Source: a virus (taxonomy: Duplodnaviria > Caudoviricetes). Taken from it: 64,000 bases of DNA. The notes under the pieces are model-generated. The model was not told the DNA's origin and did not search any database. It worked only from the letters and a program-made list of their open reading frames with translations. The stretch covers positions 1 through 64,000 of IMG/VR virus record IMGVR_UViG_3300033121_001944. One strand, given 5' to 3'. Positions 43,029 through 57,068 of the stretch are shown here, one piece after another. Within the stretch, counting starts at the first letter, position 1. Each line of letters opens with the position of its first letter. Position numbers and translations under genes: made by a program.

Positions 43029-43788
43029 CTATAATCCTTAATTCATTGGACAACGTAGGCAGAACATTTTTCAGTACCTCAAACATATTATAATGGTCTC
43101 GTTTATAGAGAGTACGCCTATGCTGTAACCGTATTATAGAAGCGCCCAGCCCCAATACAAGACCGTTTTTCTTCTCATCGGCTTGCATTTGACTTCTATA
43201 GTTATCAATCCCTAAATTGGTGGCAAAGTGGGAGGGACCGTCGATTTCAACAACACAATTGTATTCTGGTAAGTAAAAATCCACTTCCAGTTTAGTTCCA
43301 GGTAGCAAGCTCTTATAATGATGGATATATCTGATCTTGTGCTCATCAAACATTTTAGCGAGGGCGTGTTCAGCTTTACTTCCATAAAGAGAGGCATCTC
43401 GAATAGCTAAAGCCCCCTTACGGCGGAACTCTTCCTTATTCGGCATGTTCTCAAAATTCTCACGCTGAACATCGGCTCGCCGCTTTCTCTCCTCTTCTGA
43501 AAGCTTGCTCCACGCCTCATGCTGCTTCTTACCTAGATCTCGCTTATGTTCTTCACTCCAGGTTTTACCCTTCATATGAGGGTTAATTCTTTCAGAGTCA
43601 TACCCAGCACGTAAACTTTCGCTCTTGCTAAGTACGGGGATATTTCTCTTATTGCAAAAACGCAGTAATCGTACAGCGTTTGTGTCTAGACGTCGAGCCA
43701 GCTCTCTCAAGGAGATTCTATTGTTACAATGCTCTTCGCGTAGAAAAGCGTCTAGCTCATCGTCCGAGAAGTCTTTTAATGTCCTCAT
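43012..43788 (-). mobile_element. Free-standing homing endonuclease (HTH + NUMOD3-like + Vsr/DUF559 nuclease)
   Basis: KGKTWSEEHKRDL NUMOD3-like; SKAE..L, EVDFYLPEY..VVEIDGPSH, DEKKN...IIRL nuclease motifs. Confidence 0.7.
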
Positions 43789-44173
43789 AATTCCAATTTC
43801 TCACTAACTTCGGCTCTTTAAAGGTAGCTTTAACGAGCGGAGCAAAAGTGGGCTCGCAAGCTAATTCCATTGACGTTGCCGTTAAAACGTCCATTGCTGT
43901 AAATTGCTGGTTGTTCCAATCGATGTTGTTGATGTAAAAATACTTATCTTTAATCAAAGTATATTCGGTTAAATAGCGGGCGCTAAAGATGTCGCCAGCA
44001 ATAATAGGTCCACGAAAGTCCCAAATGTTAAATGAGGGCAAAATCGCTATAGGTGAATGAACGTCTACTGGTCCAAAATTATTCAGGAATAAGACGACCT
44101 CTGTTTGTTTAGCCAGCCTAAATACTGATTCTACCCAAGGGAAGCTTAAATGATCTAAATATACGCCTATCAC
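43757..44173 (-). CDS. Glycosyltransferase-associated / degenerate Rossmann-like protein
   Basis: 138 aa alpha/beta; located in the GT cluster; weak call. Confidence 0.35.
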   Translation of the reverse strand: MIGVYLDHLSFPWVESVFRLAKQTEVVLFLNNFGPVDVHSPIAILPSFNIWDFRGPIIAGDIFSARYLTEYTLIKDKYFYINNIDWNNQQFTAMDVLTATSMELACEPTFAPLVKATFKEPKLVRNWNYEDIKRLLGR

Positions 44174-44916
44174 AGTGCGACTCCTATTAACTGTTCTAAT
44201 TGCCCACAGAACTGACTATAACTTAAAATCTTTTCCTCATATTTATTGATGATAGATTTTGGTTTAGAGATCGTATCCTTAATCACCTGATTAATAGTGG
44301 CAGGCGTAAAGACCGGGACTTGTAAATTATTCTCAGTATCTGTAATGACTGTGCAGCCCAACTTTAATAGGTCAATTGCTTGCTTAAAGCCAAAATCAAT
44401 ACACACTTTAGCTGACTTGCATAGCTTCGACGACTCATCTGGAGATTGCACTCTGCCAATATAGCTAACGTGCGGCAATGCGATATTTCCAGCCGCCCTC
44501 CACGTAAAGCCATGCATAATAGGATCAATTACATTTAAACATTGAGCTTGGGACTCTTTCTCTAATGGATAAATGGATAGATAGAATGCGTCAACAGACA
44601 GCCCGCGATGAAAATAAGCTGGCGGAAAAAGTATAGTATCTGCTAAGTCCGGCAAGCTTTCAAACTTGAACTTCTTTTCAGCCTTACATTCCTCTGGCGC
44701 ATCACATTTAATAAATAAATTAACTGCCTTAGCCGTTGCCCCAAACACTCTATATCCCATTTTGGAGGCGTCTGTAAAAAGTGCGACATCCGGCTTAAAA
44801 TCTTTTAGATCTTGCTGGCTGGGGTCCCACCATAATACGTCATGGTGCCGATGAGTTAGAGCGTTGAAAAGCCCCACAATATCTCTATCTTGTGACTGCT
44901 GTATAGATATCTTCAT
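44170..44916 (-). CDS. Divergent GT-B glycosyltransferase-like protein (CgeB-like)
   Basis: HDVLWWD....DFKPDVALF, DTILF.P, YIGRV....SKLCKSAKVCID pattern. Confidence 0.45.
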   Translation of the reverse strand: MKISIQQSQDRDIVGLFNALTHRHHDVLWWDPSQQDLKDFKPDVALFTDASKMGYRVFGATAKAVNLFIKCDAPEECKAEKKFKFESLPDLADTILFPPAYFHRGLSVDAFYLSIYPLEKESQAQCLNVIDPIMHGFTWRAAGNIALPHVSYIGRVQSPDESSKLCKSAKVCIDFGFKQAIDLLKLGCTVITDTENNLQVPVFTPATINQVIKDTISKPKSIINKYEEKILSYSQFCGQLEQLIGVAL

Positions 44917-45604
44917 AATGTAATTTCTGTAATCCTAAAACTTCAATTTCCTTCAAAATTTCTCGTAATGGTAATGGTCTAATCTGATATAGCCCATTTG
45001 GAAAAATTAACATATTTTCTTCTTCAATGCAGCCAAACCGTAAATCTTGATAGTTGATACGATTTGACAGCTCTTCAAAAAAGTTTGCAGGTAAAATAAT
45101 AGGCGGCTTAACAAAAACGTAGAACTGGCTCTTATGTTGAACCATCATATTGTCTCGCCAATCCGTGGGCATATCTACGAACTCTTGATGAGACCATCGT
45201 GCTTTCAAGCCCGTCATCTTCATAATATCAAAGTTTATTTTTGTTTGTCCGCTAAAGTCTACGCCAACTATCTTTTGTGGCTGTAAAGTCTGCTTATTGA
45301 AGGTGAGAAGTGCCTGCCCAAAATTATCATAAATGGGGCTAGTTTCAATAAACACGTTATACTTAATCTTGACCTCTTCGTCTAAAAGATCTACTTTATC
45401 ATCCATATCTTTGTCTGGATACCACTTGTCGGCTTCTCGCTTAAAATGACACATACGGCGGAAAATTCGCTCGCCATCACCGCCATAGAAAAATTCTTCC
45501 TCTTCCATATGACGTACAAGGCATCCGACCTGTTCTTTACCTTCATAATCAGCAAAGCAGCAGTTTTTACATGATGTTGTCGAGCTGTTTTGCGACTGAC
45601 TCAT
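44885..45604 (-). CDS. Hypothetical protein: N-terminal Cys cluster plus possible degenerate GT-A domain
   Basis: CKNCCF...GC...C motif; LTFNKQTLQPQKIV resembles GT2 N-termini; weak call. Confidence 0.3.
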   Translation of the reverse strand: MSQSQNSSTTSCKNCCFADYEGKEQVGCLVRHMEEEEFFYGGDGERIFRRMCHFKREADKWYPDKDMDDKVDLLDEEVKIKYNVFIETSPIYDNFGQALLTFNKQTLQPQKIVGVDFSGQTKINFDIMKMTGLKARWSHQEFVDMPTDWRDNMMVQHKSQFYVFVKPPIILPANFFEELSNRINYQDLRFGCIEEENMLIFPNGLYQIRPLPLREILKEIEVLGLQKLHYEDIYTAVTR

Positions 45605-46661
45605 AGCTGAATTTCTCCTTGATGTTATAAACTGAACTAGAGGCTAACTTATTATTATAAGCCATTCTCATTAATTCTTGTGCATGTAATACGTTAGGCT
45701 TCATCCACGTTTCCCACGATGTATATAGGAAGGGAACCGGGGGATATGCGGTAACACAGGGCATTTCCATAGAATCTACTTTAGCGATATTTAGCGCTGA
45801 ATCAATAGCTCCAATGCCTTTTGTGCAGATTACTGGCTTTTCTTTATAGGCTGCATCAATTAAAGGGCGGCAGGTAGACTCACCATAACTGAGCGTTATA
45901 AAGCAATCACAGGTGTTATGGAGCTTAACCATATTTTCGTCAGATAGCCGATCTAGCAAAAAGATAACTTCTGGGTAATGATGTGGGTAGTCATACATCC
46001 TTGCCGTTGCCTTAACGTGCTGTAATAATTGTTGCACCTTCTGGTTGGCGATAATTGGATCTACGTTATTAGCTACACTCGTCTTAATGACTAAGACTGC
46101 ATCATCTTCCTTGCGGAACTCTCTCCAAAAGGCAGTTAATAGATCAAATATATTTTTTCTATCTACTAACTCTCCGATAAAGTAAAAAGCGAATCTTTTA
46201 TTGATAACTGAAGCTAAACCATCTAGCTGCCCGCTAACGTCCAATGCTTGAAAATCCATTGGCATGGGAACCACATGAATGGGCTTTGTAACTCCACTAT
46301 CAACCAGATTAAGCTTTTCCTGCTCAGTGGCAACTACCAGCTCTTCCATTTCATTCATTCTATCGACCCAGCCAGTCTGCTCTAAATGGCGGGTTTCTGT
46401 AAAACAGGACCCCACATGTTTTCTTACATTAGGGAATCTTTCGAAGAATTGCGGTAAGCACTGCTGAAAATATACGTCCGGCACATCGCTTTCTAGTTGT
46501 GGAGGTATCCAGTCCGGCAGCTTATTTAATAGAACACTGCCTAGAACAATGGGCTGCACCTTAATTTCATGTGAAGTAAGGGTAAAAGCTTTAAGGTAAT
46601 CTCTGGCGGCTTTGCCCCACCCGTCGTTTTGTGGGTACGTACTTTTAACAGCTACTTTCAT
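45567..46661 (-). CDS. GT4-family (GT-B) glycosyltransferase
   Basis: Start MKVAV at 46661; GWGKAARDY, FYFIGELVDRKN..L.AF, LHNTCDCFITLSYGESTCRPLID....KPVICT. Confidence 0.85.
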   Translation of the reverse strand: MKVAVKSTYPQNDGWGKAARDYLKAFTLTSHEIKVQPIVLGSVLLNKLPDWIPPQLESDVPDVYFQQCLPQFFERFPNVRKHVGSCFTETRHLEQTGWVDRMNEMEELVVATEQEKLNLVDSGVTKPIHVVPMPMDFQALDVSGQLDGLASVINKRFAFYFIGELVDRKNIFDLLTAFWREFRKEDDAVLVIKTSVANNVDPIIANQKVQQLLQHVKATARMYDYPHHYPEVIFLLDRLSDENMVKLHNTCDCFITLSYGESTCRPLIDAAYKEKPVICTKGIGAIDSALNIAKVDSMEMPCVTAYPPVPFLYTSWETWMKPNVLHAQELMRMAYNNKLASSSVYNIKEKFSYESVAKQLDNIM

Positions 46662-48229
46662 GCTAGATAGTCCTCTGGCTGAATTTGCTCCAAACCGCAT
46701 CGAACACGTTCGCACCAGTTCATATGTTCTACCATTCCTTTATATTTCTCAATAATACTTTGTGGAGTTACTGCAGCCATTGTTTTGCCTTTTAGCTCGT
46801 ATTGGCAATTCAAAGACTTAATGTTAAGTAAGTTAAATACATTCCAGCTAATATCTGGGATATGCGAAGTCATAGCATGGATAAATTGAGTAACACTCAT
46901 CTCGCCAGAAAGCTCTGGGAACGAATATTGTCTAAAAGAGGCTGTCCAGCTTCTCTTGGGCATATCCGCCTTATCTAAAGCCATAATCCACTTATCAATA
47001 ATAAGTTGCCAAGTATATTTCTGTAACACTACAGCCCTACTATTTACTACCGGCTTACGTAGGGCGTGATCTACCATGACTTCTGCCCATAACTCAATAT
47101 TTTGAGTAGCTCGCTTAGCGTCAATATTATGCTCAAGCGTCACGGCTGCTGGCTTAACTGGGGTCCCGCCAAACTCCCTTACTAGCTCTGACATTGCAGA
47201 ATAATCGGTCGCCATAATGGGGATATTACTAGCGGCAGCCTCAATTTGAGGATAGCCCAGTCCCTCACAAGTACATGGCTGAACATAATAGTCCATTATA
47301 TTATAGACCTCATTGAGTAATACGTCGGGAGGAGAAAAAATGACGTTAGGTGAGAATGCACTCATATCTTGACCTAGAGGAGAATAACATCTCTCCCCCT
47401 TGAATGTAGAAAAGAAAATACCATTCGTTTTTCTACAGTGGTAAGTGAAGAGCACCTTATTAATTACGCCATGCTCTAGCAGTAGTGGGATAAGGTTCCA
47501 CCCCTGGTCTACAAAGCTCGTATGTAAAAGTAGATAGGACCGGGCGGCAATTTCTGGAGGAGCCATTTTCAAGTAAAGAGAAAAGCTCTCAATGATGTCG
47601 GGGAACCGCTTCCGCATTTGATTGCGGGCAACGAAACCAAAAATGATAGCATTTTCAGGTAAATTATACTTTCTGCGTAAAGCTGACTTATCAAGTGGGC
47701 GCATGATATTTGGGTCAATACCCATCCCAATAGAGCCAATAGCTGGTATATTTTGTTCTCGTAAATACTCTGCAGCCCAATCTGTGTACGTATACACGCT
47801 ATCAGCTTTAGCGATGATTTGCAAGAAATCTGTCCGTTGAGGAAGAGAGTCAACTGTAGGAGATATCATCCAGTGATAGTATGGACGAAGTGGACACGTC
47901 TGTTCGTGAGCAAATTGCCAAGGATCAGCAGAGGAAACAACATGTGTTGGTTTATAGTGTAGGCAAACCTTATCCCATCTCCATACGCCATATTCATTGA
48001 ATGGATTTGACGCAAACTCCTTGAAGCGGGGATCTGTTGGTTGAACGTTTGTCGGGTAATATTTCCAGGGGACTTTATCTTTTTGTGAAATGTCGCCGCC
48101 AAACCCTACTTCTGCCACTGACTCAAAAAGACCTGAATCCATCAAGCCCTTTAGGAGGTTCCTCTTGTAAACAGCGAATCCGCTATTTGCAGTTGAGGTA
48201 TCACCTCCGATGATGATACGTTTTCCCAT
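46658..48229 (-). CDS. GT4-family (GT-B) glycosyltransferase
   Basis: SGFAVY..NL, FGFVARNQMRKRFP.IIE.F, VYNIMDYYVQP..CEGLGYPQIEAAA..IP..ATDYSAMSE (EX7E). Confidence 0.88.
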   Translation of the reverse strand: MGKRIIIGGDTSTANSGFAVYKRNLLKGLMDSGLFESVAEVGFGGDISQKDKVPWKYYPTNVQPTDPRFKEFASNPFNEYGVWRWDKVCLHYKPTHVVSSADPWQFAHEQTCPLRPYYHWMISPTVDSLPQRTDFLQIIAKADSVYTYTDWAAEYLREQNIPAIGSIGMGIDPNIMRPLDKSALRRKYNLPENAIIFGFVARNQMRKRFPDIIESFSLYLKMAPPEIAARSYLLLHTSFVDQGWNLIPLLLEHGVINKVLFTYHCRKTNGIFFSTFKGERCYSPLGQDMSAFSPNVIFSPPDVLLNEVYNIMDYYVQPCTCEGLGYPQIEAAASNIPIMATDYSAMSELVREFGGTPVKPAAVTLEHNIDAKRATQNIELWAEVMVDHALRKPVVNSRAVVLQKYTWQLIIDKWIMALDKADMPKRSWTASFRQYSFPELSGEMSVTQFIHAMTSHIPDISWNVFNLLNIKSLNCQYELKGKTMAAVTPQSIIEKYKGMVEHMNWCERVRCGLEQIQPEDYLA

Positions 48230-48231
48230 TA

Positions 48232-49872
48232 CTAGATCTGTTGAATCCTATTAATTAATAGCGAGCCTTCTCGCCCCTTATTGCCTCGCGAGCCCATTAC
48301 GAGGACTTTATTGCCTTGAAAAAGTTTAGAGCGAAACTCTAACCACACTTCAGGAAATGCGGTCGCGCTCAGCTTTTGGGTCCCATCTTTCAGTTCTATA
48401 AAAGCCATTTCTCTACCAGCATCTTTACCTTTGGTAAGATACAACTTAACATTATTGATTGTAGCAGCAATTCTGTATTCGTCAAGCTTTTTCTTTTCAA
48501 GAAACTCTTCACATGTACAGTTTGCAACTTCTCCCCCGTCTACCTCTGAGCAGGTGAAGGCGTATCCTAAAAAGTGGTTTTCCCACTCAAATAATTTGCT
48601 CTTAGGGTCCATCATAGAAATCGGCGGCTTTTCTAGCTGGCTGGCAATCTGCATAACTTTATTTAAGGTGACCTGGGTAGCGCAAAGCTTGCCCTTCCCC
48701 TTACCCATATGAGCGACCTCTCTTAAGGCATCTAAAAACGACCCTTTATAATCTCTGACAAATTCCTTAATGCCCTCATTGAGCTTACCAAATTTATCTG
48801 ATTCATACAGCATTTTTGTGCGGGTCTTACCAATGTAGTCGATAGCTCCGCTCTTTATTAGAGCCTCTGCCGCGTCTGATGAGGTATGGTCTAAATGCCA
48901 CATCATTTCATTCCAAGTGCTGCCGCTGCTGGCAATATATTCATGTCCATTAAAGGACTCCCAGAATTTAGCCAATTTGGTAGCCCCGACACTTTTAATG
49001 CGGGCTAGACCAAAATGAATCGTACCTTTCTCAAGTGAGAAATCTGCATTGCGCACCCTCAGGTCCGGCTTTACAATCTTCACTTTAAAATTTAAGGCAT
49101 CATCTATAACGGCACCAATATCTTCAATAGTCTTAGCGTGCTCTAGTTCAGATAGGAAAAATACGCGGGGAAAATGAGCTTTTGGATAAGCTGAGAAATA
49201 GAGGGCGTCCAGAGAATAGGCAAGCGAATGGCTTTTATTAAAACTGTAACGTTGCCCCGCCTCGATAATAGAAAATATAGCTTCTGCCTCCTCTTGGGTC
49301 AGCTTTGCATGAGATTTACACCCGTCTATGAATTTATTTTTAAACTTAGCCATTAGTTCTGGCAGTTTCTTAGCACATGCCTTTAGTAGGGCGTAAGACT
49401 CACTTCCATTAAACCCCGCCAACTCCGTAGCGATCTTCATGTAGTCTTCTTGGTAGAGTCCTAAGCCGTACCCATCTTTTAGAATTTCTGACAAACTAGG
49501 GTGAATTGGAACTACTGCATCCACCCCGTTCTTTCTGTCAATATAGTGCTTTTTAAGAGTTTTACCGTCCATTTCGGCATCTCCCACGCCGGGGCGGATA
49601 ATAGAAATGACGTCGCTCAACTCTTCTTCCGTGATCGGTTTGCACTGATAGGCGGCATTCTGACCGAGAGGGGTCTCCAATTGGAAAACCCCTTTTGTCA
49701 AGCCGGTAGAAATAAGTCCCCAAATACGGGGGCATCTAATATTGGCTTTTTCCGGTTCGTAATTAACGCCAATGATCTCGCCATCTTTTTCGGCGACTTC
49801 CCATTGGCAACCACAATCAAACGTCTTTAAGTACCTGCGGACGCCATGTAACTCTTGGTGCGACTCGTTCAT
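48232..49872 (-). CDS. dnaE: DNA polymerase III alpha, C-terminal half (fingers, HhH, OB)
   Basis: TKGVFQLE, LYQED.M.IA..LAGF, YSFNKSHSLAY, IHFGLARIKSVG, E...LGY and MAF.EL.DGT OB motifs. Confidence 0.92.
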   Translation of the reverse strand: MNESHQELHGVRRYLKTFDCGCQWEVAEKDGEIIGVNYEPEKANIRCPRIWGLISTGLTKGVFQLETPLGQNAAYQCKPITEEELSDVISIIRPGVGDAEMDGKTLKKHYIDRKNGVDAVVPIHPSLSEILKDGYGLGLYQEDYMKIATELAGFNGSESYALLKACAKKLPELMAKFKNKFIDGCKSHAKLTQEEAEAIFSIIEAGQRYSFNKSHSLAYSLDALYFSAYPKAHFPRVFFLSELEHAKTIEDIGAVIDDALNFKVKIVKPDLRVRNADFSLEKGTIHFGLARIKSVGATKLAKFWESFNGHEYIASSGSTWNEMMWHLDHTSSDAAEALIKSGAIDYIGKTRTKMLYESDKFGKLNEGIKEFVRDYKGSFLDALREVAHMGKGKGKLCATQVTLNKVMQIASQLEKPPISMMDPKSKLFEWENHFLGYAFTCSEVDGGEVANCTCEEFLEKKKLDEYRIAATINNVKLYLTKGKDAGREMAFIELKDGTQKLSATAFPEVWLEFRSKLFQGNKVLVMGSRGNKGREGSLLINRIQQI

Positions 49873-50500
49873 AAATTCCTAGAAACCTTTTAATAATGTC
49901 GGCACAGTCTATAACGTCTTTTTTAGCGTCGTGAGCACCAAATTTATCAATGCCGAAGAAGTCTCGCAAGCTATCTAAACTTAAGCTTTTTGGGCGATCA
50001 TCAGCCCACATAAACCATTGGGTAGACAGATCTAGTAGGTCAACAACCTCATTTTCTCGCTTGCTAAATGGGATCTTCTTCTTGAATTTCTCATTATAGC
50101 GAGCTGTAATCGGTAGGTCAAATCCGCGAATGTTTTGTCCGCCAGCCATTGGGGTTTCGTCAAATTTACTACTTTTAGCATAACTCTTGACGTATTTATA
50201 GAATTCATCCCAAGCTTCCTTTTCTGGGACCCCTTGGAGCCATCGCTCGTGAACTTCACTTGCGGTACACCGCTGATGTTTAGAGTGCCACTCTATCGTT
50301 TGTTGATGAGCGGCAAAGTATCCTTCTTGATCAGCATCATCTGGACGAACATCTATATTAAAGACTTCGTCCACTAGAATGTCAAGATTCCTCAGGTCCA
50401 TTGGGACTGCCGCTATCTGGACTATCCCCAATTGGTTGATCTTGTCCGGCGACCAGTCCGTCTCGTAATCGAACACTATCAAATAACGATTCCTGCTCAT
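49817..50500 (-). CDS. dnaQ: DnaQ-like DEDDh 3'-5' exonuclease
   Basis: IVFDYET, IVQIAA, GQNIRGFDLPI, LSL..LR.FFGI, AHDA..DV motifs. Confidence 0.88.
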   Translation of the reverse strand: MSRNRYLIVFDYETDWSPDKINQLGIVQIAAVPMDLRNLDILVDEVFNIDVRPDDADQEGYFAAHQQTIEWHSKHQRCTASEVHERWLQGVPEKEAWDEFYKYVKSYAKSSKFDETPMAGGQNIRGFDLPITARYNEKFKKKIPFSKRENEVVDLLDLSTQWFMWADDRPKSLSLDSLRDFFGIDKFGAHDAKKDVIDCADIIKRFLGIYERVAPRVTWRPQVLKDV

Positions 50501-50690
50501 TCAAATCTTCTTTCTTTTTCTTTTTCTTGGGTTTATCAATCTTCTCAACGAACATCATGGTGGGGAACTCTCGCGCCTCACCTGTATGGCAGTTTTCGCA
50601 AATCCCTTTACGCTTATCTTTTAGAATAAAATCGTTATCGCCAAGTCGGAAGTAATCTCCGACGTTTAACATACATAACCTAGGCTTCAA
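50382..50690 (-). CDS. Small beta-barrel hypothetical protein (paralog of 50680-50862)
   Basis: L..LNVGDYFRLG..DFILK...N...F....VEK; the 3' part overlaps dnaQ. Confidence 0.55.
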   Translation of the reverse strand: MKPRLCMLNVGDYFRLGDNDFILKDKRKGICENCHTGEAREFPTMMFVEKIDKPKKKKKKEDLNEQESLFDSVRLRDGLVAGQDQPIGDSPDSGSPNGPEES

Positions 50691-50862
50691 GTTTTTCTAC
50701 CTCCTGATTGGCATCGAACGTTTTCTTGACATCTAAGTTTCCGTCAACATGAGCGTTATAAAGGATCTTGCAACAGCTCTTCTTAACGGGAACAACTTTG
50801 ATCCAAGTCAGTCCGTCATATTTAAATTTTGCACCCAGAGCGATAGAACTAAAACGCACCAT
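50680..50862 (-). CDS. Small beta-barrel hypothetical protein
   Basis: FSSIALGAKFKYDG..WIK...NA...F....VEK; coupled to the dnaE-N stop. Confidence 0.6.
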   Translation of the reverse strand: MVRFSSIALGAKFKYDGLTWIKVVPVKKSCCKILYNAHVDGNLDVKKTFDANQEVEKLEA

Positions 50863-52510
50863 TTTTAAGTCTCCTTCTGATATAATCAGCTTTATCTAAG
50901 AGGTCCAACCCGAGTAAATCTAGCTTTACAAGCCCAAGCTTTTCAGCATCATCCATATTTACGCCAACGACATATCTGCCCGCTGAAACGTCCCATATGA
51001 GTGGGGCTTTCTTGTAGATCGGCTCGTTAGCTAGAGCGTAAGCACTCGCATGGCGCCCCCTACCTTGGATAACCTTATCTATCGCGATGGCGGCTTGAAA
51101 CTCTTGACCGTACGGTCCATCAAATTCCTTGCTACACCACTGGGCAAATTCTTCCATATTATTAATACACCACAGAATGAGAGAGTCGGTGCCTGTCTCA
51201 TCCTTCTGGACCTTCAGCTCTGGGGCGATTTTTGCCTCGGGAGGCATTTTCTTCGTGATAAAATTCTGTTCAGAAGCATCAACCCCTAGTGCCCTAAATA
51301 CCGTTTTGAGACCAGCCGCCCCTTTTAATGTGTTAAATGTGGCAAGTTGAGCGAATCTCTCTGGTCCATACTTACTCTCGATATAAGCGATAATGTCATC
51401 TCGTTTAGATGGGGGGACGTCCGTATCGATATCTGGCAACCCGCCACGGTCGGCGCTATAAAACCGCTCAAATAGGAGGTTATACTTGATGGGGTCCACA
51501 TTAGTGATCCCAGTTAAATAAGATGTTAGGCAGCCCCCAGCACTTCCTCGTCCCACCCCCACGAGAATGCCTTGAGACTTAGCCCACCTAATAATGTCCT
51601 GCATAATGACGAAATAGCCAGAAATATCGGCTTTAGCTATGACGTCTAACTCTAGCTTAATCCGATCAATATATTCTTGAGAATTCAGCCCCTTCGACTT
51701 ATAGCCGTCACGGCAAAGCTGTCGCAAATAATCTTCCTGGCTAACCCCCTTTGGCGTGTCGAAGTGGGGCAGCTCTTGCTTATATGTAATGGAAAACTCT
51801 TCGATCTGACTATAAATCTTGCCAGTATTATCAATCTCTTCCTGAGAGAGCCCCCGCGATCTAAGATCTTCCTCCGTTAGGATATAGTAAACATTCTCTG
51901 AGAATAAGCGATGCGACGACCCTTTGATTGTAGTCTTTAAATAGTTTGCAAATAAATATTGGTTGATGTGCCACTGGCTGGGTTTCAAATAATGGTTGGG
52001 GGAAATAGCAACCTTTGGGAGGCAGGACTTTCTTAATTCGTCAAATTTCTCGGGGTACGAGATCGGGTCCAGCCCAATGAAAACATCTCCCTTATCGCAA
52101 TGACGCTCAAAGATGTCAACGAACTTATCTCTAATAACGACAATTAGGTTGCCGCGTAACCTCTGAATAAATTCAAAGGCGTCCATCCTGGGTCCCATTT
52201 TGTAGTTAGCTGGGTCATTTGCTTTATACACTATATATAATAGCTCTTCCCACCCAGCTTTATTTTTGGCATAGACGTTCACATACGTTTCCTCTTCTCC
52301 ACCTATAAGCTTGAGCTGCATCCCTAGCATGGGCTTCAGACCCGCTTTCTTCATGGCAGAGTCGTATTTAACACACATAAATAATTGGTCTACATCAGCC
52401 AGCCCGATAGATAGATAGCCAGCTTCCTTAGCGAACTGTGCGACCTCGTCTGGGAAGATCTGAGAGACGAGTGGCGTGCCGTGTGTTAAACACATCAAGG
52501 GAACGTACAT
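50849..52510 (-). CDS. dnaE: DNA polymerase III alpha, N-terminal half (degenerate PHP, palm, thumb)
   Basis: YF.I.QDII.WAK, GVGRGSAGG.L..YL.GIT.VDP, LFERF, PDIDTD, GRHAS, GLVKLDLLGL. Confidence 0.95.
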   Translation of the reverse strand: MYVPLMCLTHGTPLVSQIFPDEVAQFAKEAGYLSIGLADVDQLFMCVKYDSAMKKAGLKPMLGMQLKLIGGEEETYVNVYAKNKAGWEELLYIVYKANDPANYKMGPRMDAFEFIQRLRGNLIVVIRDKFVDIFERHCDKGDVFIGLDPISYPEKFDELRKSCLPKVAISPNHYLKPSQWHINQYLFANYLKTTIKGSSHRLFSENVYYILTEEDLRSRGLSQEEIDNTGKIYSQIEEFSITYKQELPHFDTPKGVSQEDYLRQLCRDGYKSKGLNSQEYIDRIKLELDVIAKADISGYFVIMQDIIRWAKSQGILVGVGRGSAGGCLTSYLTGITNVDPIKYNLLFERFYSADRGGLPDIDTDVPPSKRDDIIAYIESKYGPERFAQLATFNTLKGAAGLKTVFRALGVDASEQNFITKKMPPEAKIAPELKVQKDETGTDSLILWCINNMEEFAQWCSKEFDGPYGQEFQAAIAIDKVIQGRGRHASAYALANEPIYKKAPLIWDVSAGRYVVGVNMDDAEKLGLVKLDLLGLDLLDKADYIRRRLKNGAF

Positions 52511-52520
52511 TGATCAATCC

Positions 52521-52922
52521 TTAAAACGGGATATCTGCGTCTAGCTCTTCATCAATTGCGACTGGAGTATCCTCTAGTGTCTTACGAGACACCTTTCCTC
52601 CTCCACCACCGCTAGAACCAGAAGATACCTTCTTATAGTCATTTACCTGAACGGTAAGGTATTGCTTGCTCTTATACTCCCGAAAATGGAGCGCGCCAGT
52701 TACGAACACTAGGTCTCCATCGCTCAAGATTTTGGCGGCAGTTTCACCTCTCTTGCCCCAGACTGACAAGGTCATCTCTACTGGATCGTCGCTGTCCTTG
52801 TAAGACCAAGCGTGAGTGGCTGATAGTTCTGTGACTGTACTAGAGCCTACCTCCCTCTCCTTCGCATTCCCATTAATCCTAAAAAGCCCATTAAATGAAT
52901 TACACACTTTTAGCTCTCCCAT
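52521..52922 (-). CDS. ssb: Single-stranded DNA-binding protein
   Basis: OB fold (SVWGK.GE....L..GD.V.V.G.L), Gly linker, acidic tail ending DIPF. Confidence 0.88.
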   Translation of the reverse strand: MGELKVCNSFNGLFRINGNAKEREVGSSTVTELSATHAWSYKDSDDPVEMTLSVWGKRGETAAKILSDGDLVFVTGALHFREYKSKQYLTVQVNDYKKVSSGSSGGGGGKVSRKTLEDTPVAIDEELDADIPF

Positions 52923-53913
52923 TTTCTATTGTGGATTCTAGTCCACGGTAATCAAGAAAAACTTTAACGCTATCACAAACACATGCTTTACCATCTACAT
53001 CGTCAAAATGTGGATTAGTGAGCTTTGTATGAGAAATATTTAAGTCAGAACGTCCCCAGCTCTCAAAATTAGTCTTCTTAAAGGGACACATATTACATTT
53101 CCAAGTATAGCGTGGCTGAGGCTTTCGCATACCCTTAATCCGAGAAATTGTTGCTTCAACCTTCTCCATCAAGTGAGATTCCTGTTCACGACTAAAGATA
53201 TGTGTGAATGCCTTACCCACTTTAACAAACCAAAGATTTGCTACAATATCTTCTTCGTCTGGAAAATGGTGGCGTAGAGCCCAATAATACATGCAGAGCT
53301 GAGTATCGTAGATAAGGTGGGCTGTATCTTTTTCCTTATCGGTTGCCCAATCTTTTGTAGATGAGCCAAATTTATAATCAATAAAGTTCAGCGTGCCTCG
53401 CTTGTCTCGAAATACAAGATCGATAAAGCCGTTAAGCTGGATATTCCCCCCTTCAATTTCTCCATCTGTAAGGTAAGAGTATTTAGCCCAAGACTTATTA
53501 ATCGGAAGAAAAAAGTCGCTCTCTGGCTGAATAACCTCTTTATGGTTTTCTGGAAAAAGGCGGTGAGCTTGAGCTTTACGTATATTTGAGCAAACTTCCC
53601 TATAGTCTTTATCTGTAAAAGTTAGGTGTGATTCAAGCTTCGTATAATATTCATAAATAATATCTGTCCATTTTTGGATATCGTAGTCAGCTTTAATGTC
53701 GCCAACTATTTCGTCCTCTAAATGGGTCAGCCCCCCTTGCCTAACTAATTTAGATTTAGCTATACACTCTAGTACATAATGGCAAATAGTGCCTAATACT
53801 GCCGCTCTACCTGATGGTTCGCGGTAACCTAATGTATATTGCAAAAACCACTTTAATTCGCAAGAGTCGAATGTATTAATCGAGCTTGCACTTAACTTTT
53901 TTAACTTAATCAT
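52900..53913 (-). CDS. RecB/Cas4-like PD-(D/E)XK exonuclease
   Basis: LSASSI..F..C..KW, GT..H..LE, GFIDLV, IDYK, QL..Y, C..CPF. Confidence 0.85.
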   Translation of the reverse strand: MIKLKKLSASSINTFDSCELKWFLQYTLGYREPSGRAAVLGTICHYVLECIAKSKLVRQGGLTHLEDEIVGDIKADYDIQKWTDIIYEYYTKLESHLTFTDKDYREVCSNIRKAQAHRLFPENHKEVIQPESDFFLPINKSWAKYSYLTDGEIEGGNIQLNGFIDLVFRDKRGTLNFIDYKFGSSTKDWATDKEKDTAHLIYDTQLCMYYWALRHHFPDEEDIVANLWFVKVGKAFTHIFSREQESHLMEKVEATISRIKGMRKPQPRYTWKCNMCPFKKTNFESWGRSDLNISHTKLTNPHFDDVDGKACVCDSVKVFLDYRGLESTIENGRAKSV

Positions 53914-54737
53914 TTAATCTTTGAAAAAACCTCTAGTTCCTTTAATGACTCATAAAGAGTGCGGTTCAAACAGCGGACATCTTCACAATTTTGATTATCC
54001 ACGATAGCGTCCCATCTGTTAAAATCTACAAAACCGTTTTCGCTCGCATGCTCACCAGCATTTACCGGTACATGCTTATTTAAATAAATACAGAGACCGC
54101 CAGCCTCTTTAATTGCTGTCGCCTCATTATCGAATCGACAGTCGTAAACAATGGCGATCTTAGGGGCATCTCGCCGAATTTGGTTCATCAAATAATTGAT
54201 CCAGCAGTTCGAATGGATTTTGCGACAAACTTCTGTGCCAAAATATTGAAGTATATCCCTGATTGACATATAGCCGGGCTCATGATAATAGACTGAGAAC
54301 CCCTCATCTTTCATCCCGAGCAAGCTTTCTCTTTTCTCAACAAACTTTTTGGTGGCTTGAAAGAGGTCTTTTCTTGTCATAATGCCGGGCATATCTTGCC
54401 AGCGAATGTGCGTTAGCTTATTTTTATCGGCATCGCTACCGAACGCATCTTTAATATTTAGATTAAATAAATCACAAACGATATGTTTGAGACCATCTGC
54501 GAATCCATATAACTTAACAAATGATGGGGCAATATCGTTAACATGTACAGTTTTTCCATCTACTGAAATCGATCCATCTTCGTTAGATTTAAATTCTTCG
54601 ACATAGCCATGGGTTACTAGATTAATGCCCGCAATAAAATTAGCTGAAGCGTTTTTCCCTGACTTAATTCTGCCGCCTATTCCGATAAGTCGGCTAGTAT
54701 TGGCAAGACTCTCTCTTTGATGTGTTGAATCGGACAT
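53910..54737 (-). CDS. Deoxynucleoside monophosphate kinase
   Basis: IGIGGRIKSGK, FAD.LK, R.ILQ.FGTEV.R, W, DCRF.NE...I...GG, H.SE. Confidence 0.85.
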   Translation of the reverse strand: MSDSTHQRESLANTSRLIGIGGRIKSGKNASANFIAGINLVTHGYVEEFKSNEDGSISVDGKTVHVNDIAPSFVKLYGFADGLKHIVCDLFNLNIKDAFGSDADKNKLTHIRWQDMPGIMTRKDLFQATKKFVEKRESLLGMKDEGFSVYYHEPGYMSIRDILQYFGTEVCRKIHSNCWINYLMNQIRRDAPKIAIVYDCRFDNEATAIKEAGGLCIYLNKHVPVNAGEHASENGFVDFNRWDAIVDNQNCEDVRCLNRTLYESLKELEVFSKIK

Positions 54738-55645
54738 TCACCTAAATCCTCATAATCTATTTTTGGGATAATAATATTATATAAGCCCTTGAGCTTTTTT
54801 ACAATTCGTGCTGTGGCATTTTTTCCAGCTTCTCCATTGTCCATAGCTAACACTAAATTAAGAACGCCATAATGGCTGAGTAGCCTCATTTGCTCAAAGC
54901 TAATTTCTGTTCCAAATAAGGCGAGCCCGCAATGAATGCCAGCCTCTTCCAATCGCCAGATGTTTCCGGGGCTTTCTACTAAAATACAGGTATTTGTTTT
55001 TTCTATATGTTTTTTAGCAAACCAGCTATTGTAAAGAGTTTTATTTCTTTCAAAGTTACTGTGGAGCCATTTAATCTTACTTTTTCCAGTAATATCTCGC
55101 CCCGTATATCCAACAGCGAACTCATATTCTTCATCATAAATCGGAGCTACACACCTATTGTAAAAATCAGACTTCTTATTAGTGCATAATCCTATATCGT
55201 ATTTATCAAGAACTTCAGGCGTGTATCCTCGCCCCAAATAATAGTCTGCCGGAATATTTAGTCGCTTTCTAACCTGCTCTCTAGTCGCTTTAGGTGAATC
55301 TCTCTTATCATCTTTCAGGAAGAAGACGTTGTTAATGGAGTCAAACTCAATCTTGAATTTGCCACCTAGCAAATCATTGATAAACTGATGAGCCTCTCCA
55401 AAGGTAACTTCTTTACCAAGCTTTTTTTCAAGTAAGCAGCGTGTTAGCCCAAAAATTCCGGCGCCGTATTTCTCATGGCAGCCCAACGTGAAGCATCGCC
55501 ACGCGCCACTTTCTTTATAAACAGAAAAAGCTGTTTCGTTATCCCCATCATGTATTGGACAATTACAGCTATATCTATTGATATATTCTTTTGGCTCAAT
55601 ATTAAACGCTTTAAAAATGGCGTCAATTGCTTTGCTGTAATCCAT
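54677..55645 (-). CDS. dnaG: DNA primase (CHC2 Zn finger + TOPRIM)
   Basis: CPIH.GD...F......W.CF..GC; ILVESPGN; LAMDNGEAG. Confidence 0.8.
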   Translation of the reverse strand: MDYSKAIDAIFKAFNIEPKEYINRYSCNCPIHDGDNETAFSVYKESGAWRCFTLGCHEKYGAGIFGLTRCLLEKKLGKEVTFGEAHQFINDLLGGKFKIEFDSINNVFFLKDDKRDSPKATREQVRKRLNIPADYYLGRGYTPEVLDKYDIGLCTNKKSDFYNRCVAPIYDEEYEFAVGYTGRDITGKSKIKWLHSNFERNKTLYNSWFAKKHIEKTNTCILVESPGNIWRLEEAGIHCGLALFGTEISFEQMRLLSHYGVLNLVLAMDNGEAGKNATARIVKKLKGLYNIIIPKIDYEDLGECPIQHIKERVLPILADLSE

Positions 55646-57068
55646 GTTTCTTTGCCAATCTCAACTCTTCAGAAAAAGCTACCTCTTCAATATAAGCGCA
55701 GTTACGGCGAGCATCACATGAAATATATTCGCCTGGGGGTAATCCTGGTCCATGCCTGCATACAAGAGGTGCAAGTTTAAAATTCCCACTTTCTATACCG
55801 TCTTCAGCGATTTCTTCCGCCGTTTTGGGTTTAAGGATTGAGAAGTTAGAGCAAAGCCAGATGATGCGATCTGACTGAGATACGGAAGCCACACTCTCTC
55901 GATCAAGCCCCTCGCGATTTAACTGCACAAAGCTAACAATGGGGATGTCGTACATGACCGCAAAAGCATGAAGCTTCGTCATCATAAACCCCATGAGCTG
56001 GTGCTCAGCTAGCTTATTGAGCCCCTCAGAATCCATCAACTTTAAGTAGTCGTAAACAATTACGCATGGGTTAGCTTTCCTATCAGATGTAACGCCCACC
56101 TTCTTAAAGAGCCACCGCCTCATAACGGCAACCTGCTCTTCGAATGAAAAGCCAGAAATACTTTTATAGTCGAGCGACTTACCTTTAGTAGCTAGATCTT
56201 CAGCCGCCTGTAGAACGTTGGAGGCTACCGATTCATCCTGACCAAAGCTCCCAGTCTCAATATCTCTAATAGAAGTTTTAGACTGGCAGGCAGTAAACCT
56301 CATTTGCTGGTCTTGCAGAGTCATTTCCGTGTCCAGATACAGTACTGGCAAACCCAACATGGCAATATTGCGAGACATGTTTAAGGCTAAACCTGACTTA
56401 AATCCCTTAGCGCGGGCTCCGATCATATTAATGGTGCCACCACGTAATCCGCCACCAATTGTAGCGTCCCATCTCTTAAAGCCAGTAGAGATTCCAGGCT
56501 GAGAGACTGGAGAAGCTTTAAGCTCTTGCAAGAGTGCTGTCAAGCCATCAGATAGAGATACGGGATCTTCATCCCTCTGATCAAGAATAGAGGAGAAGTT
56601 AAATACTTGATCTTCTGCAATAGATAAGATTTCGGTGATAGTTTCAGCTCCAGTAATGCCTAGGAGCTGTTCTTGTGCTACCTCCAACTTCTCAAACATT
56701 AGGCGGGCGATTTCCAGCTTGCGAATCTTCTGAGCAAACTTTCTTAGGTTAGCGGTCGAAGACTGAAAATCAATAATCTGCCTAATATGCTTGCTACATT
56801 CACTGCGATTAACGACCTGACCGATACCAAGCTCATGAGCTGCAGCCTGGAATGCCGCTATATCACATCGCTGGATCTTAGTAACCTCATAGCAATGTTT
56901 AATGCATAAATACATTAATTCATTATAACTTTCTCTGAAGCTTGTATTTCTGATAATGTCGCATACATCATAATATGCATCAATGCCGCCATTATAGATA
57001 GCTGAGAGTACAGCTTTTTCTGCCGCTGGGTTACTTAGAGATTCCATTATCGTCCTGTCGTACAACAC
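55623..57068 (-). CDS. dnaB: Replicative DnaB-like helicase
   Basis: AEKAVLS, GISTGF..WD..IGGG.R, GARAKGFKS, YLDTEM, IVYDYLKLM, QLNR, SDRI, RHGP. Confidence 0.9.
   Translation of the reverse strand: MLYDRTIMESLSNPAAEKAVLSAIYNGGIDAYYDVCDIIRNTSFRESYNELMYLCIKHCYEVTKIQRCDIAAFQAAAHELGIGQVVNRSECSKHIRQIIDFQSSTANLRKFAQKIRKLEIARLMFEKLEVAQEQLLGITGAETITEILSIAEDQVFNFSSILDQRDEDPVSLSDGLTALLQELKASPVSQPGISTGFKRWDATIGGGLRGGTINMIGARAKGFKSGLALNMSRNIAMLGLPVLYLDTEMTLQDQQMRFTACQSKTSIRDIETGSFGQDESVASNVLQAAEDLATKGKSLDYKSISGFSFEEQVAVMRRWLFKKVGVTSDRKANPCVIVYDYLKLMDSEGLNKLAEHQLMGFMMTKLHAFAVMYDIPIVSFVQLNREGLDRESVASVSQSDRIIWLCSNFSILKPKTAEEIAEDGIESGNFKLAPLVCRHGPGLPPGEYISCDARRNCAYIEEVAFSEELRLAKKHGLQQSN

Follow-up and report, generated by a model that had tools for sequence, protein, structure and literature searches.

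Introduction

To our knowledge, the C-family DNA polymerases, which replicate all bacterial chromosomes, are regarded as enzymes of one chain, except where a split intein rejoins their parts. Described here is a dnaE-type gene for the alpha subunit of DNA polymerase III (Pol III) that is encoded as two genes, DnaE-N and DnaE-C, in a 64,000-nucleotide stretch of DNA from a virus of the Caudoviricetes (referred to as the window; positions 1 to 64,000 of the 89,383-bp IMG/VR record IMGVR_UViG_3300033121_001944, CheckV completeness 57%). An earlier annotation of this DNA, made from the sequence alone and referred to as the original prediction, had proposed an intein-free, naturally split C-family replicase, and this proposal is upheld by a seamless cut, the lack of any intein or intron match, a conserved gene order, purifying selection, and independent assemblies. 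The two halves are very probably translated as separate proteins and would assemble non-covalently, together with the products of the genes lying between them.

Several replication enzymes encoded in pieces have been described. In the cyanobacterial dnaE-n/dnaE-c pairs (Ssp/Npu) and the "fractured" dnaE genes of marine and freshwater metagenomes (Dassa et al. 2009), split inteins rejoin the halves at sites other than the one reported here, as the original prediction had correctly stated for cyanobacteria, and fractured loci carry adjacent halves with a homing endonuclease gene between them (PMC2677866). Intein-free splits are known in family B, where DNAP-N and DNAP-C of PhiKZ PolB form a non-covalent complex (bioRxiv 10.64898/2026.09.30.755723) and gp43 of T4-related Aeromonas phages is cited in PMC2677866 as a split enzyme that forms an assembled complex. 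The ribonucleotide reductase of phage Aeh1 is encoded by NrdA-a and NrdA-b together with mobE, and its assembly depends on new tails at the break (PMC3045599). Within the C family, a minimal two-protein Pol III alpha module was computationally inferred in T4-like jumbo phages by Iyer et al. 2021; this module lacks PHP and other domains, is cut in the nucleotidyltransferase core, and is encoded at distant loci beside a family B polymerase (PMC7824862). No paper was found in the literature on a full-length DnaE cut at the palm/fingers junction with an exonuclease gene in the gap, and the phage replicase described below, split without covalent rejoining, is a real, widespread, and apparently undescribed arrangement.

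A Polymerase III Alpha Gene in Two Pieces

Five collinear open reading frames (ORFs) on the minus strand, with ends that overlap or abut, make up the locus at the positions originally predicted, with DnaE-N first, DnaE-C last, and an exonuclease gene in the break (Table 1). The two halves are separated by 976 nt holding three ORFs, which encode the microprotein s1, a second small protein s2, and the exonuclease. As had been claimed for the C-half, each half possesses its own translation start: overlapping stop and start codons occur, and motifs resembling Shine-Dalgarno sequences are present. The s1 gene illustrates this tight packing, since its ATG lies inside the last DnaE-N codons with AGGAG 8 nt upstream of it. 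Promoter-like and terminator-like sites show no enrichment at the locus.

Profile searches placed the domains of a complete enzyme on the two products. DnaE-N matched the Pfam PHP family (E 1e-11) and the whole of PF07733 (profile positions 1-260 of 260, E 7e-65), while DnaE-C matched the PF17657 fingers from profile position 19 onwards, followed by HHH_6 (PF14579) and OB (PF01336). In the phage DnaE family phrog_405, the N-half covered positions 44-606 and the C-half positions 615-1071. Alignment to Thermus aquaticus (Taq) Pol III alpha (2hpi) placed N-half residue 550 opposite Taq 637 and C-half residue 34 opposite Taq 639; judged from this alignment, the cut is seamless, with no residue lost or duplicated relative to the Taq enzyme. 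It falls in a linker whose length varies among contiguous DnaE proteins, and the N-half ends 22 aa past the third catalytic aspartate. All three catalytic aspartates, D360 and D362 (PDIDTD) and D531 (KLDLLGL), are located in the N-half and are invariant across relatives, and the fingers, HhH, and OB domains are located in the C-half, so that the distribution of active-site elements predicted earlier is borne out by both Pfam and the Taq alignment.

DnaE-C can be aligned with Taq residues 639-953 and with the OB region, and it terminates after the OB fold, the tau-binding C-terminal domain being absent. Its AF2 model (predicted local distance difference test score, pLDDT, 82.8) retrieved 7pu7, 2hpi, and 5fku in Foldseek searches with E values down to 2e-20, and superposes on the M. 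tuberculosis, Taq, and E. coli alpha subunits over about 530 columns. The enzyme is therefore a DnaE-type member of the C family by the presence of the palm with its three aspartates and of the fingers, HhH, and OB domains; what it lacks is the single polypeptide.

Two Genes Maintained across a Large Phage Clade

The original prediction had proposed a survey of relatives for the same split point and gene order. A pattern scan of IMG/VR yielded 578 relatives, the best 80 loci of which (30-41% identity) were examined. Both halves were present in 74 of these 80, separated by a median gap of 868 nt, s1 was recognized by a hidden Markov model (HMM) in 70, and the order N-half, s1, exonuclease, C-half was kept in at least 70. 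The same layout was found in L092 and L093, contigs of two independent sequencing runs with 92% protein and 80% DNA identity to the window, and the order N-half, small ORF, exonuclease, C-half is preserved in contigs from ENA, JGI, and Logan at 60%, 40%, and 35% identity, in which the split locus is embedded in a common module of RecA, DnaB, primase, kinase, and nuclease genes. More than 1,300 protein database homologues have the size of the N-half and contain PHP and PF07733 only, and the best contiguous DnaE among 5,026 longer homologues is 31% identical, with none above about 33%. A near-DNA search of GenBank phages gave no match.

Codon comparison between the window and its 92% relatives gave synonymous/non-synonymous differences of 220/46 for the N-half, 208/59 for the C-half, 67/31 for the exonuclease, 15/9 for s1, and 16/16 for s2; by these counts both halves are under strong purifying selection. 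This bears directly on the best surviving alternative, which holds that the halves no longer form one polymerase, having decayed or acquired separate functions, and that a host or another phage polymerase replicates the genome. Such a scenario draws on the degenerate PHP of the window's lineage, on the absence of the tau-binding domain and clamp, and on the incompleteness of the record, in the remainder of which a second polymerase or clamp could sit, a point that also weighs against the split enzyme as the replicase. Set against it are the strong selection on both halves, the catalytic and dNTP-binding motifs that stay invariant in a clade diverged to 30% identity, and the co-occurrence of the halves in order in nearly all of the best loci. 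Moreover, searches of the 89-kb record for PolA, PolB (PF00136), a beta clamp, and a clamp loader were negative, so that the split DnaE is the sole polymerase detected in this incomplete genome. Decay or separation of function is consequently considered very unlikely.

A maximum-likelihood tree of 62 N-half-equivalent sequences gathered all 38 split sequences of the group into one clade with 100% support in the Shimodaira-Hasegawa-like approximate likelihood ratio test (SH-aLRT), with a contiguous group as its sister. Included in the split clade are two contiguous proteins, P0121 and P0122, which are basal but whose position is not settled by the tree. The cultured Rossellomorea phage phiT1 (PV767480) has a dnaE cut at the same linker, with products gp20 of 573 aa, gp19 of 49 aa, and gp18 of 469 aa, and falls outside the split clade, which implies either that the site was cut at least twice or that re-fusion happened. 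Two further cultured phages carry dnaE genes broken elsewhere, near the equivalent of window residue 360 in Bacillus phages Jayan and vB_BceM_WH1, the latter gene being in three pieces. Any claim of uniqueness should accordingly be moderated: no published description of the layout as a whole was found, but intein-free splitting of replicative polymerases is known in family B, and among phage dnaE genes the cut site is shared with phiT1 while Jayan and WH1 are broken elsewhere.

The gap itself is not of fixed content. In some relatives it has collected cargo genes for an RCC1-repeat protein (834 aa), a uracil-DNA glycosylase, a SIS-domain protein, and a Dam-type methyltransferase, and the halves lie up to about 4 kb apart (L057:9048-11552; L002:10293-13875; the locus of P0023). 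Accumulation of cargo at this position fits independent translation of the halves.

Absence of Elements That Could Rejoin the Halves

Post-translational joining by a cryptic or atypical split intein, as in cyanobacterial or fractured dnaE, has the attraction of precedent in this very gene, and inteins do enter this gene family. However, Hint and intein models gave zero matches even at E ≤ 10 to the C-terminal 149 residues of the N-half and the N-terminal 100 residues of the C-half, where only polymerase domains were matched, and neither a Cys1 block nor HN followed by C/S/T is present at the junction ends, in agreement with the original prediction. The non-homologous residues at the junction number 3 at the end of the N-half, counted past its last Taq-homologous position, and about 33 at the start of the C-half, far below the size of a split intein or a Hint domain. 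The search was demonstrably capable of finding such elements: in P0009, whose N-half is 55% identical, it detected an intein with LAGLIDADG and canonical Cys1 and HN/S ends at GRG/S323, and in L049:7707-10046 an intein within the fingers domain. Trans-splicing is thus regarded as extremely improbable. As an observation apart, these two cases show that classical inteins occupy two other sites of the split gene, the palm GS motif (GRG/S) and the fingers domain.

Joining at the level of RNA or translation, with the 976-nt gap acting as an ORF-bearing intron or being crossed by ribosome bypass or frameshift, could appeal to the frequent interruption of phage polymerase genes, Bacillus phage dnaE included. 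It deserves equally little credence. No Rfam family, introns included, matched at E ≤ 1 in positions 48000-52800; the gap consists of protein genes that are conserved and translationally coupled, with catalytic residues that do not vary; and in relatives it extends to about 4 kb with unrelated cargo. A TGA stands immediately before the exonuclease ATG and a TAA nine codons past the N-half stop (TAG), so that neither slippage nor read-through can fuse the neighbours. An s2-exonuclease fusion through slippage on an A-rich run was also considered and is ruled out by the same TGA. Among s1, s2, and the exonuclease, no HNH, GIY-YIG, LAGLIDADG, or Vsr match to a homing endonuclease was found, and none of the 5,026 longer homologues represents a fused N-exonuclease-C ancestor or contains an exonuclease domain.

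An origin of the split in misassembly or faulty gene calling on a single contig, a concern natural for a metagenome-derived virus record, is practically excluded by the recurrence of the layout in two independent sequencing runs at 80% nucleotide identity, in the ENA, JGI, and Logan contigs, and in at least 70 IMG/VR loci.

The C-Half Leader and the Microprotein s1

The extension that precedes the fingers in DnaE-C was described in the original prediction as a novel leader of about 45 aa containing CGC. The leader and its CGC are real, but its novel part is about 33 aa long, since residues 34-50 have homologous counterparts in Taq 639-655. In an alignment of 64 C-half N-termini, the motif F-x-CGC-x-F is followed by C47-x2-TW51; C47 and W51 are invariant, and C20 and C22 nearly so. 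In the predicted structure, beta strands at residues 11-17, 23-29, and 32-37 are modelled at pLDDT 81-89, with the CGC in the first turn. The leader CxC was identified in 61 of the 72 split loci.

The s1 microprotein was found in 64 of the 72 split loci, and its CC pair is kept in all 64 copies. Its invariant residues are F13, C30 and C31 (the SCC motif), and V55, and its AF2 model is a five-strand small barrel of high predicted quality (pLDDT 95.6). A profile search of 1.84 billion representatives returned 215 clusters, nearly all of them stand-alone proteins of 56-70 aa, and in the ESM Atlas only viral clusters without names were retrieved. In contrast to the split loci, the junctions of the unsplit P0121 and P0122 contain neither the CxC nor the C-x2-TW motif, and s1 was not found at L090, the locus of P0122. 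The C-half leader and the SCC-type s1 thus appear, from these comparisons, to accompany the split and to be missing from its nearest unsplit relative.

This pattern, together with the precedent of the tails of split NrdA in phage Aeh1, suggests that the leader and s1 arose with the split and would be docking elements, possibly metal-bound, that offset the lost peptide bond. In an extended form of this idea, the leader (CxC ... C) and s1 (SCC) would form one shared docking module, possibly bridged by a metal through their cysteines, which would hold the halves together and position the exonuclease at the palm/fingers junction. The extended proposal is offered tentatively and on balance is doubtful. 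Several observations count against the roles given to the leader, s1, and the exonuclease. The CxC leader is missing in 11 of the 72 split loci, and divergent split lineages have an unrelated ORF of about 80 aa in the place of s1; the existence of leader-less and s1-less split lineages means that neither element is strictly required. Foldseek comparison of s1 with the PDB returned only generic SH3-like and EF-P domain I folds at E ≥ 0.2, and its 215 clusters included no informative fusion with DnaE or an exonuclease, the few long matches being chimeras or repeats. No fourth metal ligand was identified, and the exonuclease also occurs beside an unsplit dnaE (L090), so that its position in the gap may be a historical accident.

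Two N-half cysteines were weighed as the fourth ligand and rejected. C459 is invariant but shared by the unsplit P0121 and P0122, and C327, although typical of the split clade, belongs to the palm GS motif, which makes it an improbable ligand at the interface; the P0009 intein is inserted at S323, not at C327. Separately, the ORF of about 80 aa that follows the N-half in divergent lineages carries the motif YQVH..DS...Y...EA..KF and was recorded at L002:10103-10345, L069:8195-8443, L077:8562-8810, and L084:8893-9135.

The Exonuclease, the s2 ORF, and the Degenerate PHP Domain

The exonuclease in the break matches PF00929 and phrog_192, annotated as "DNA polymerase exonuclease subunit", and profile searches of the PDB matched it to, among others, Exo I and the exonuclease domain of PolC. 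The DEDDh set D11, E13, D128, H190, and D195 is invariant in 42 sequences, and the protein is presumed from these features to be the proofreader. A homologous exonuclease (27% identity, E 2e-17) is encoded at L090 upstream of the unsplit dnaE, directly after a free-standing LAGLIDADG gene, which suggests that an exonuclease-containing cassette may have moved into the linker. At L090:3410-4911, this LAGLIDADG gene directly upstream of the exonuclease gene is a possible vehicle for such a cassette transfer.

The s2 ORF occurs only in the sub-lineage of the window, with homologues of 94-102 aa at 60% and 92% identity, and is weakly constrained. Its low-complexity tail runs 119 nt into the exonuclease gene (50382-50500) in a different frame, and this overlapping tail may be non-functional, as the equal numbers of synonymous and non-synonymous differences would indicate. 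The two small proteins of the gap had originally been taken for paralogs, a relationship that is not supported: the s1 HMM does not match s2, and hhalign gave a probability of 9%. A tandem form of 113 aa (P0372) hints at duplication, without proving it.

Within the 12-member sub-clade to which the window belongs, the metal ligands of the PHP domain (N-terminal approximately 270 aa, 51700-52510) are replaced and about 40 residues are deleted, whereas the main clade keeps them. The four motifs of the main clade, HxH, TDHG, GxE, and PDAHY, correspond to C-L-T-H, ADVD, GMQ, and SPNHY, respectively, in the window's lineage. Read from these motifs, the clade contains a switch from polymerases with an intact PHP to a PHP-degenerate form. 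In E. coli alpha, an inactive PHP domain binds epsilon. By analogy, the loss of the PHP metal ligands implies that proofreading in the window's lineage should depend on the separate DEDDh exonuclease.

Proposed Assembly of the Enzyme

A mechanism that accommodates these results begins with a dnaE-type Pol III alpha gene that would have been cut at a variable surface linker some 20 residues past the third catalytic aspartate. The halves would be translated as separate proteins from one operon and would reassemble non-covalently into the normal alpha fold, to which the N-half would contribute the PHP, the thumb, and the palm with its catalytic triad, and the C-half the dNTP-binding fingers, HhH, and OB. 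The gap genes are presumably translated in step with the halves, and their products are most likely components of the complex as well: the DEDDh exonuclease would act as its proofreader, and s1 would be a small subunit with an accessory or assembly role. Judged from gene layout and homology, the working enzyme is most likely an assembly of several proteins held together non-covalently, and translational coupling and co-conservation would be consistent with the complex of three to five subunits that was originally suggested. We infer the physical association of the halves from the features described above, and the same applies to the parts assigned to s1, the leader, and the exonuclease and to any metal binding.

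Should the halves associate as proposed, a large and deep phage clade with a two-protein enzyme shows that the palm/fingers interface can hold without a peptide bond. It would provide a natural system for studying Pol III alpha assembly, the coupling of fingers closure to the palm, and recruitment of the proofreader, and would offer ready-made split points and possible docking modules (leader and s1) for two-part polymerase engineering. The split arrangement is also a clean metagenomic marker of this phage clade.

Genomic Surroundings

Upstream of the dnaE halves and in the same orientation lies a replication module (52521..57068), the genes of which are listed in Table 1. Glycosyltransferase-like genes (43757-48229) directly follow DnaE-C, and the pairing of the polymerase module with two such genes is kept in the 35% relatives and beside the unsplit P0122. 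The structural genes (5789-28371) are highly divergent, with weak PHROG matches for terminase and portal only and five large ORFs without a match; because of this divergence, no cultured relative points to the host.

Table 1. Features of the split dnaE locus and the adjoining replication module (window coordinates).
Feature	Position	Strand	Size and content	Basis of assignment
DnaE-N	50849..52510	minus	553 aa; degenerate PHP, palm, thumb, last palm strand	Pfam PHP and PF07733, alignment to Taq 2hpi
s1 microprotein	50680..50862	minus	60 aa	ORF list, HMM of related loci, AF2 model
s2 ORF	50382..50690	minus	102 aa; TTG start, Lys-rich middle	Homologous ORFs in relatives
DEDDh (DnaQ/RNase T-like) 3'-5' exonuclease	49817..50500	minus	227 aa	PF00929, phrog_192
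DnaE-C	48232..49872	minus	546 aa; 33-aa Cys-rich leader, fingers, HhH/beta-binding domain, OB	PF17657, PF14579, PF01336
DnaE-C leader, residues 1-33	49774..49872	minus		Alignment of 64 C-half N-termini, AF2 model
SSB	52521-52922	minus		Pfam SSB on the window protein
PD-(D/E)XK nuclease	52900-53913	minus		Pfam PDDEXK_1 on the window protein
dNMP kinase-like gene	53910-54737	minus		Pfam matches on the 92% relative L092 and other relatives
Primase	54677-55645	minus		Pfam matches on L092 and other relatives
DnaB helicase	55623-57068	minus		Pfam matches on L092 and other relatives

Comparison with Known Replicases

The domain order of the window enzyme is that of single-chain DnaE-type Pol III alpha (Taq 2HPI/3E0D/4IQJ, E. 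coli 2HNH/5FKU, M. tuberculosis 7PU7, and gp47 of Bacillus phage 056SW001B), and the halves, taken together, can be aligned with Taq alpha from one end to the other. It differs from these enzymes in the cut after Taq 637, the 33 extra Cys-rich residues of the C-half, the two to three gap genes, the lack of a tau-binding C-terminal domain, and the loss of the PHP ligands. With the fractured dnaE genes it shares the encoding of a C-family replicase by two genes, but its gap contains a DEDDh exonuclease and a microprotein and it has no intein. The phiT1 gene shares the linker cut but is accompanied by neither an exonuclease gene nor s1, and a CxC leader is likewise missing.

Like PhiKZ PolB, gp43, and Aeh1 NrdA, the locus encodes a replication enzyme in collinear genes, and the Aeh1 tails may find a parallel in the C-half leader; the N-half has no tail. 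Those enzymes, however, belong to family B or are a ribonucleotide reductase, and their gaps hold a homing endonuclease or nothing functional, whereas the window has a presumed proofreader gene in the break and a layout fixed across a very large clade. In contrast to the module of Iyer et al., the window encodes a full-length DnaE with PHP, HhH, and OB present and adjacent halves, in a record without a PF00136 match.

A parallel is offered by the E. coli Pol III core (alpha-epsilon-theta), which likewise combines a degenerate PHP, a DEDDh exonuclease gene, and a small third gene, although s1, an all-beta barrel, has no sequence or fold link to theta. Unlike in PolC, the window exonuclease is not fused inside PHP, and any contact with PHP of the kind made by epsilon would be hypothetical. 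If the docking-module proposal for the leader and s1 were true, the split enzyme would represent a third architecture of C-family proofreading, beside epsilon bound on PHP in E. coli and the exonuclease inserted in PHP in PolC.

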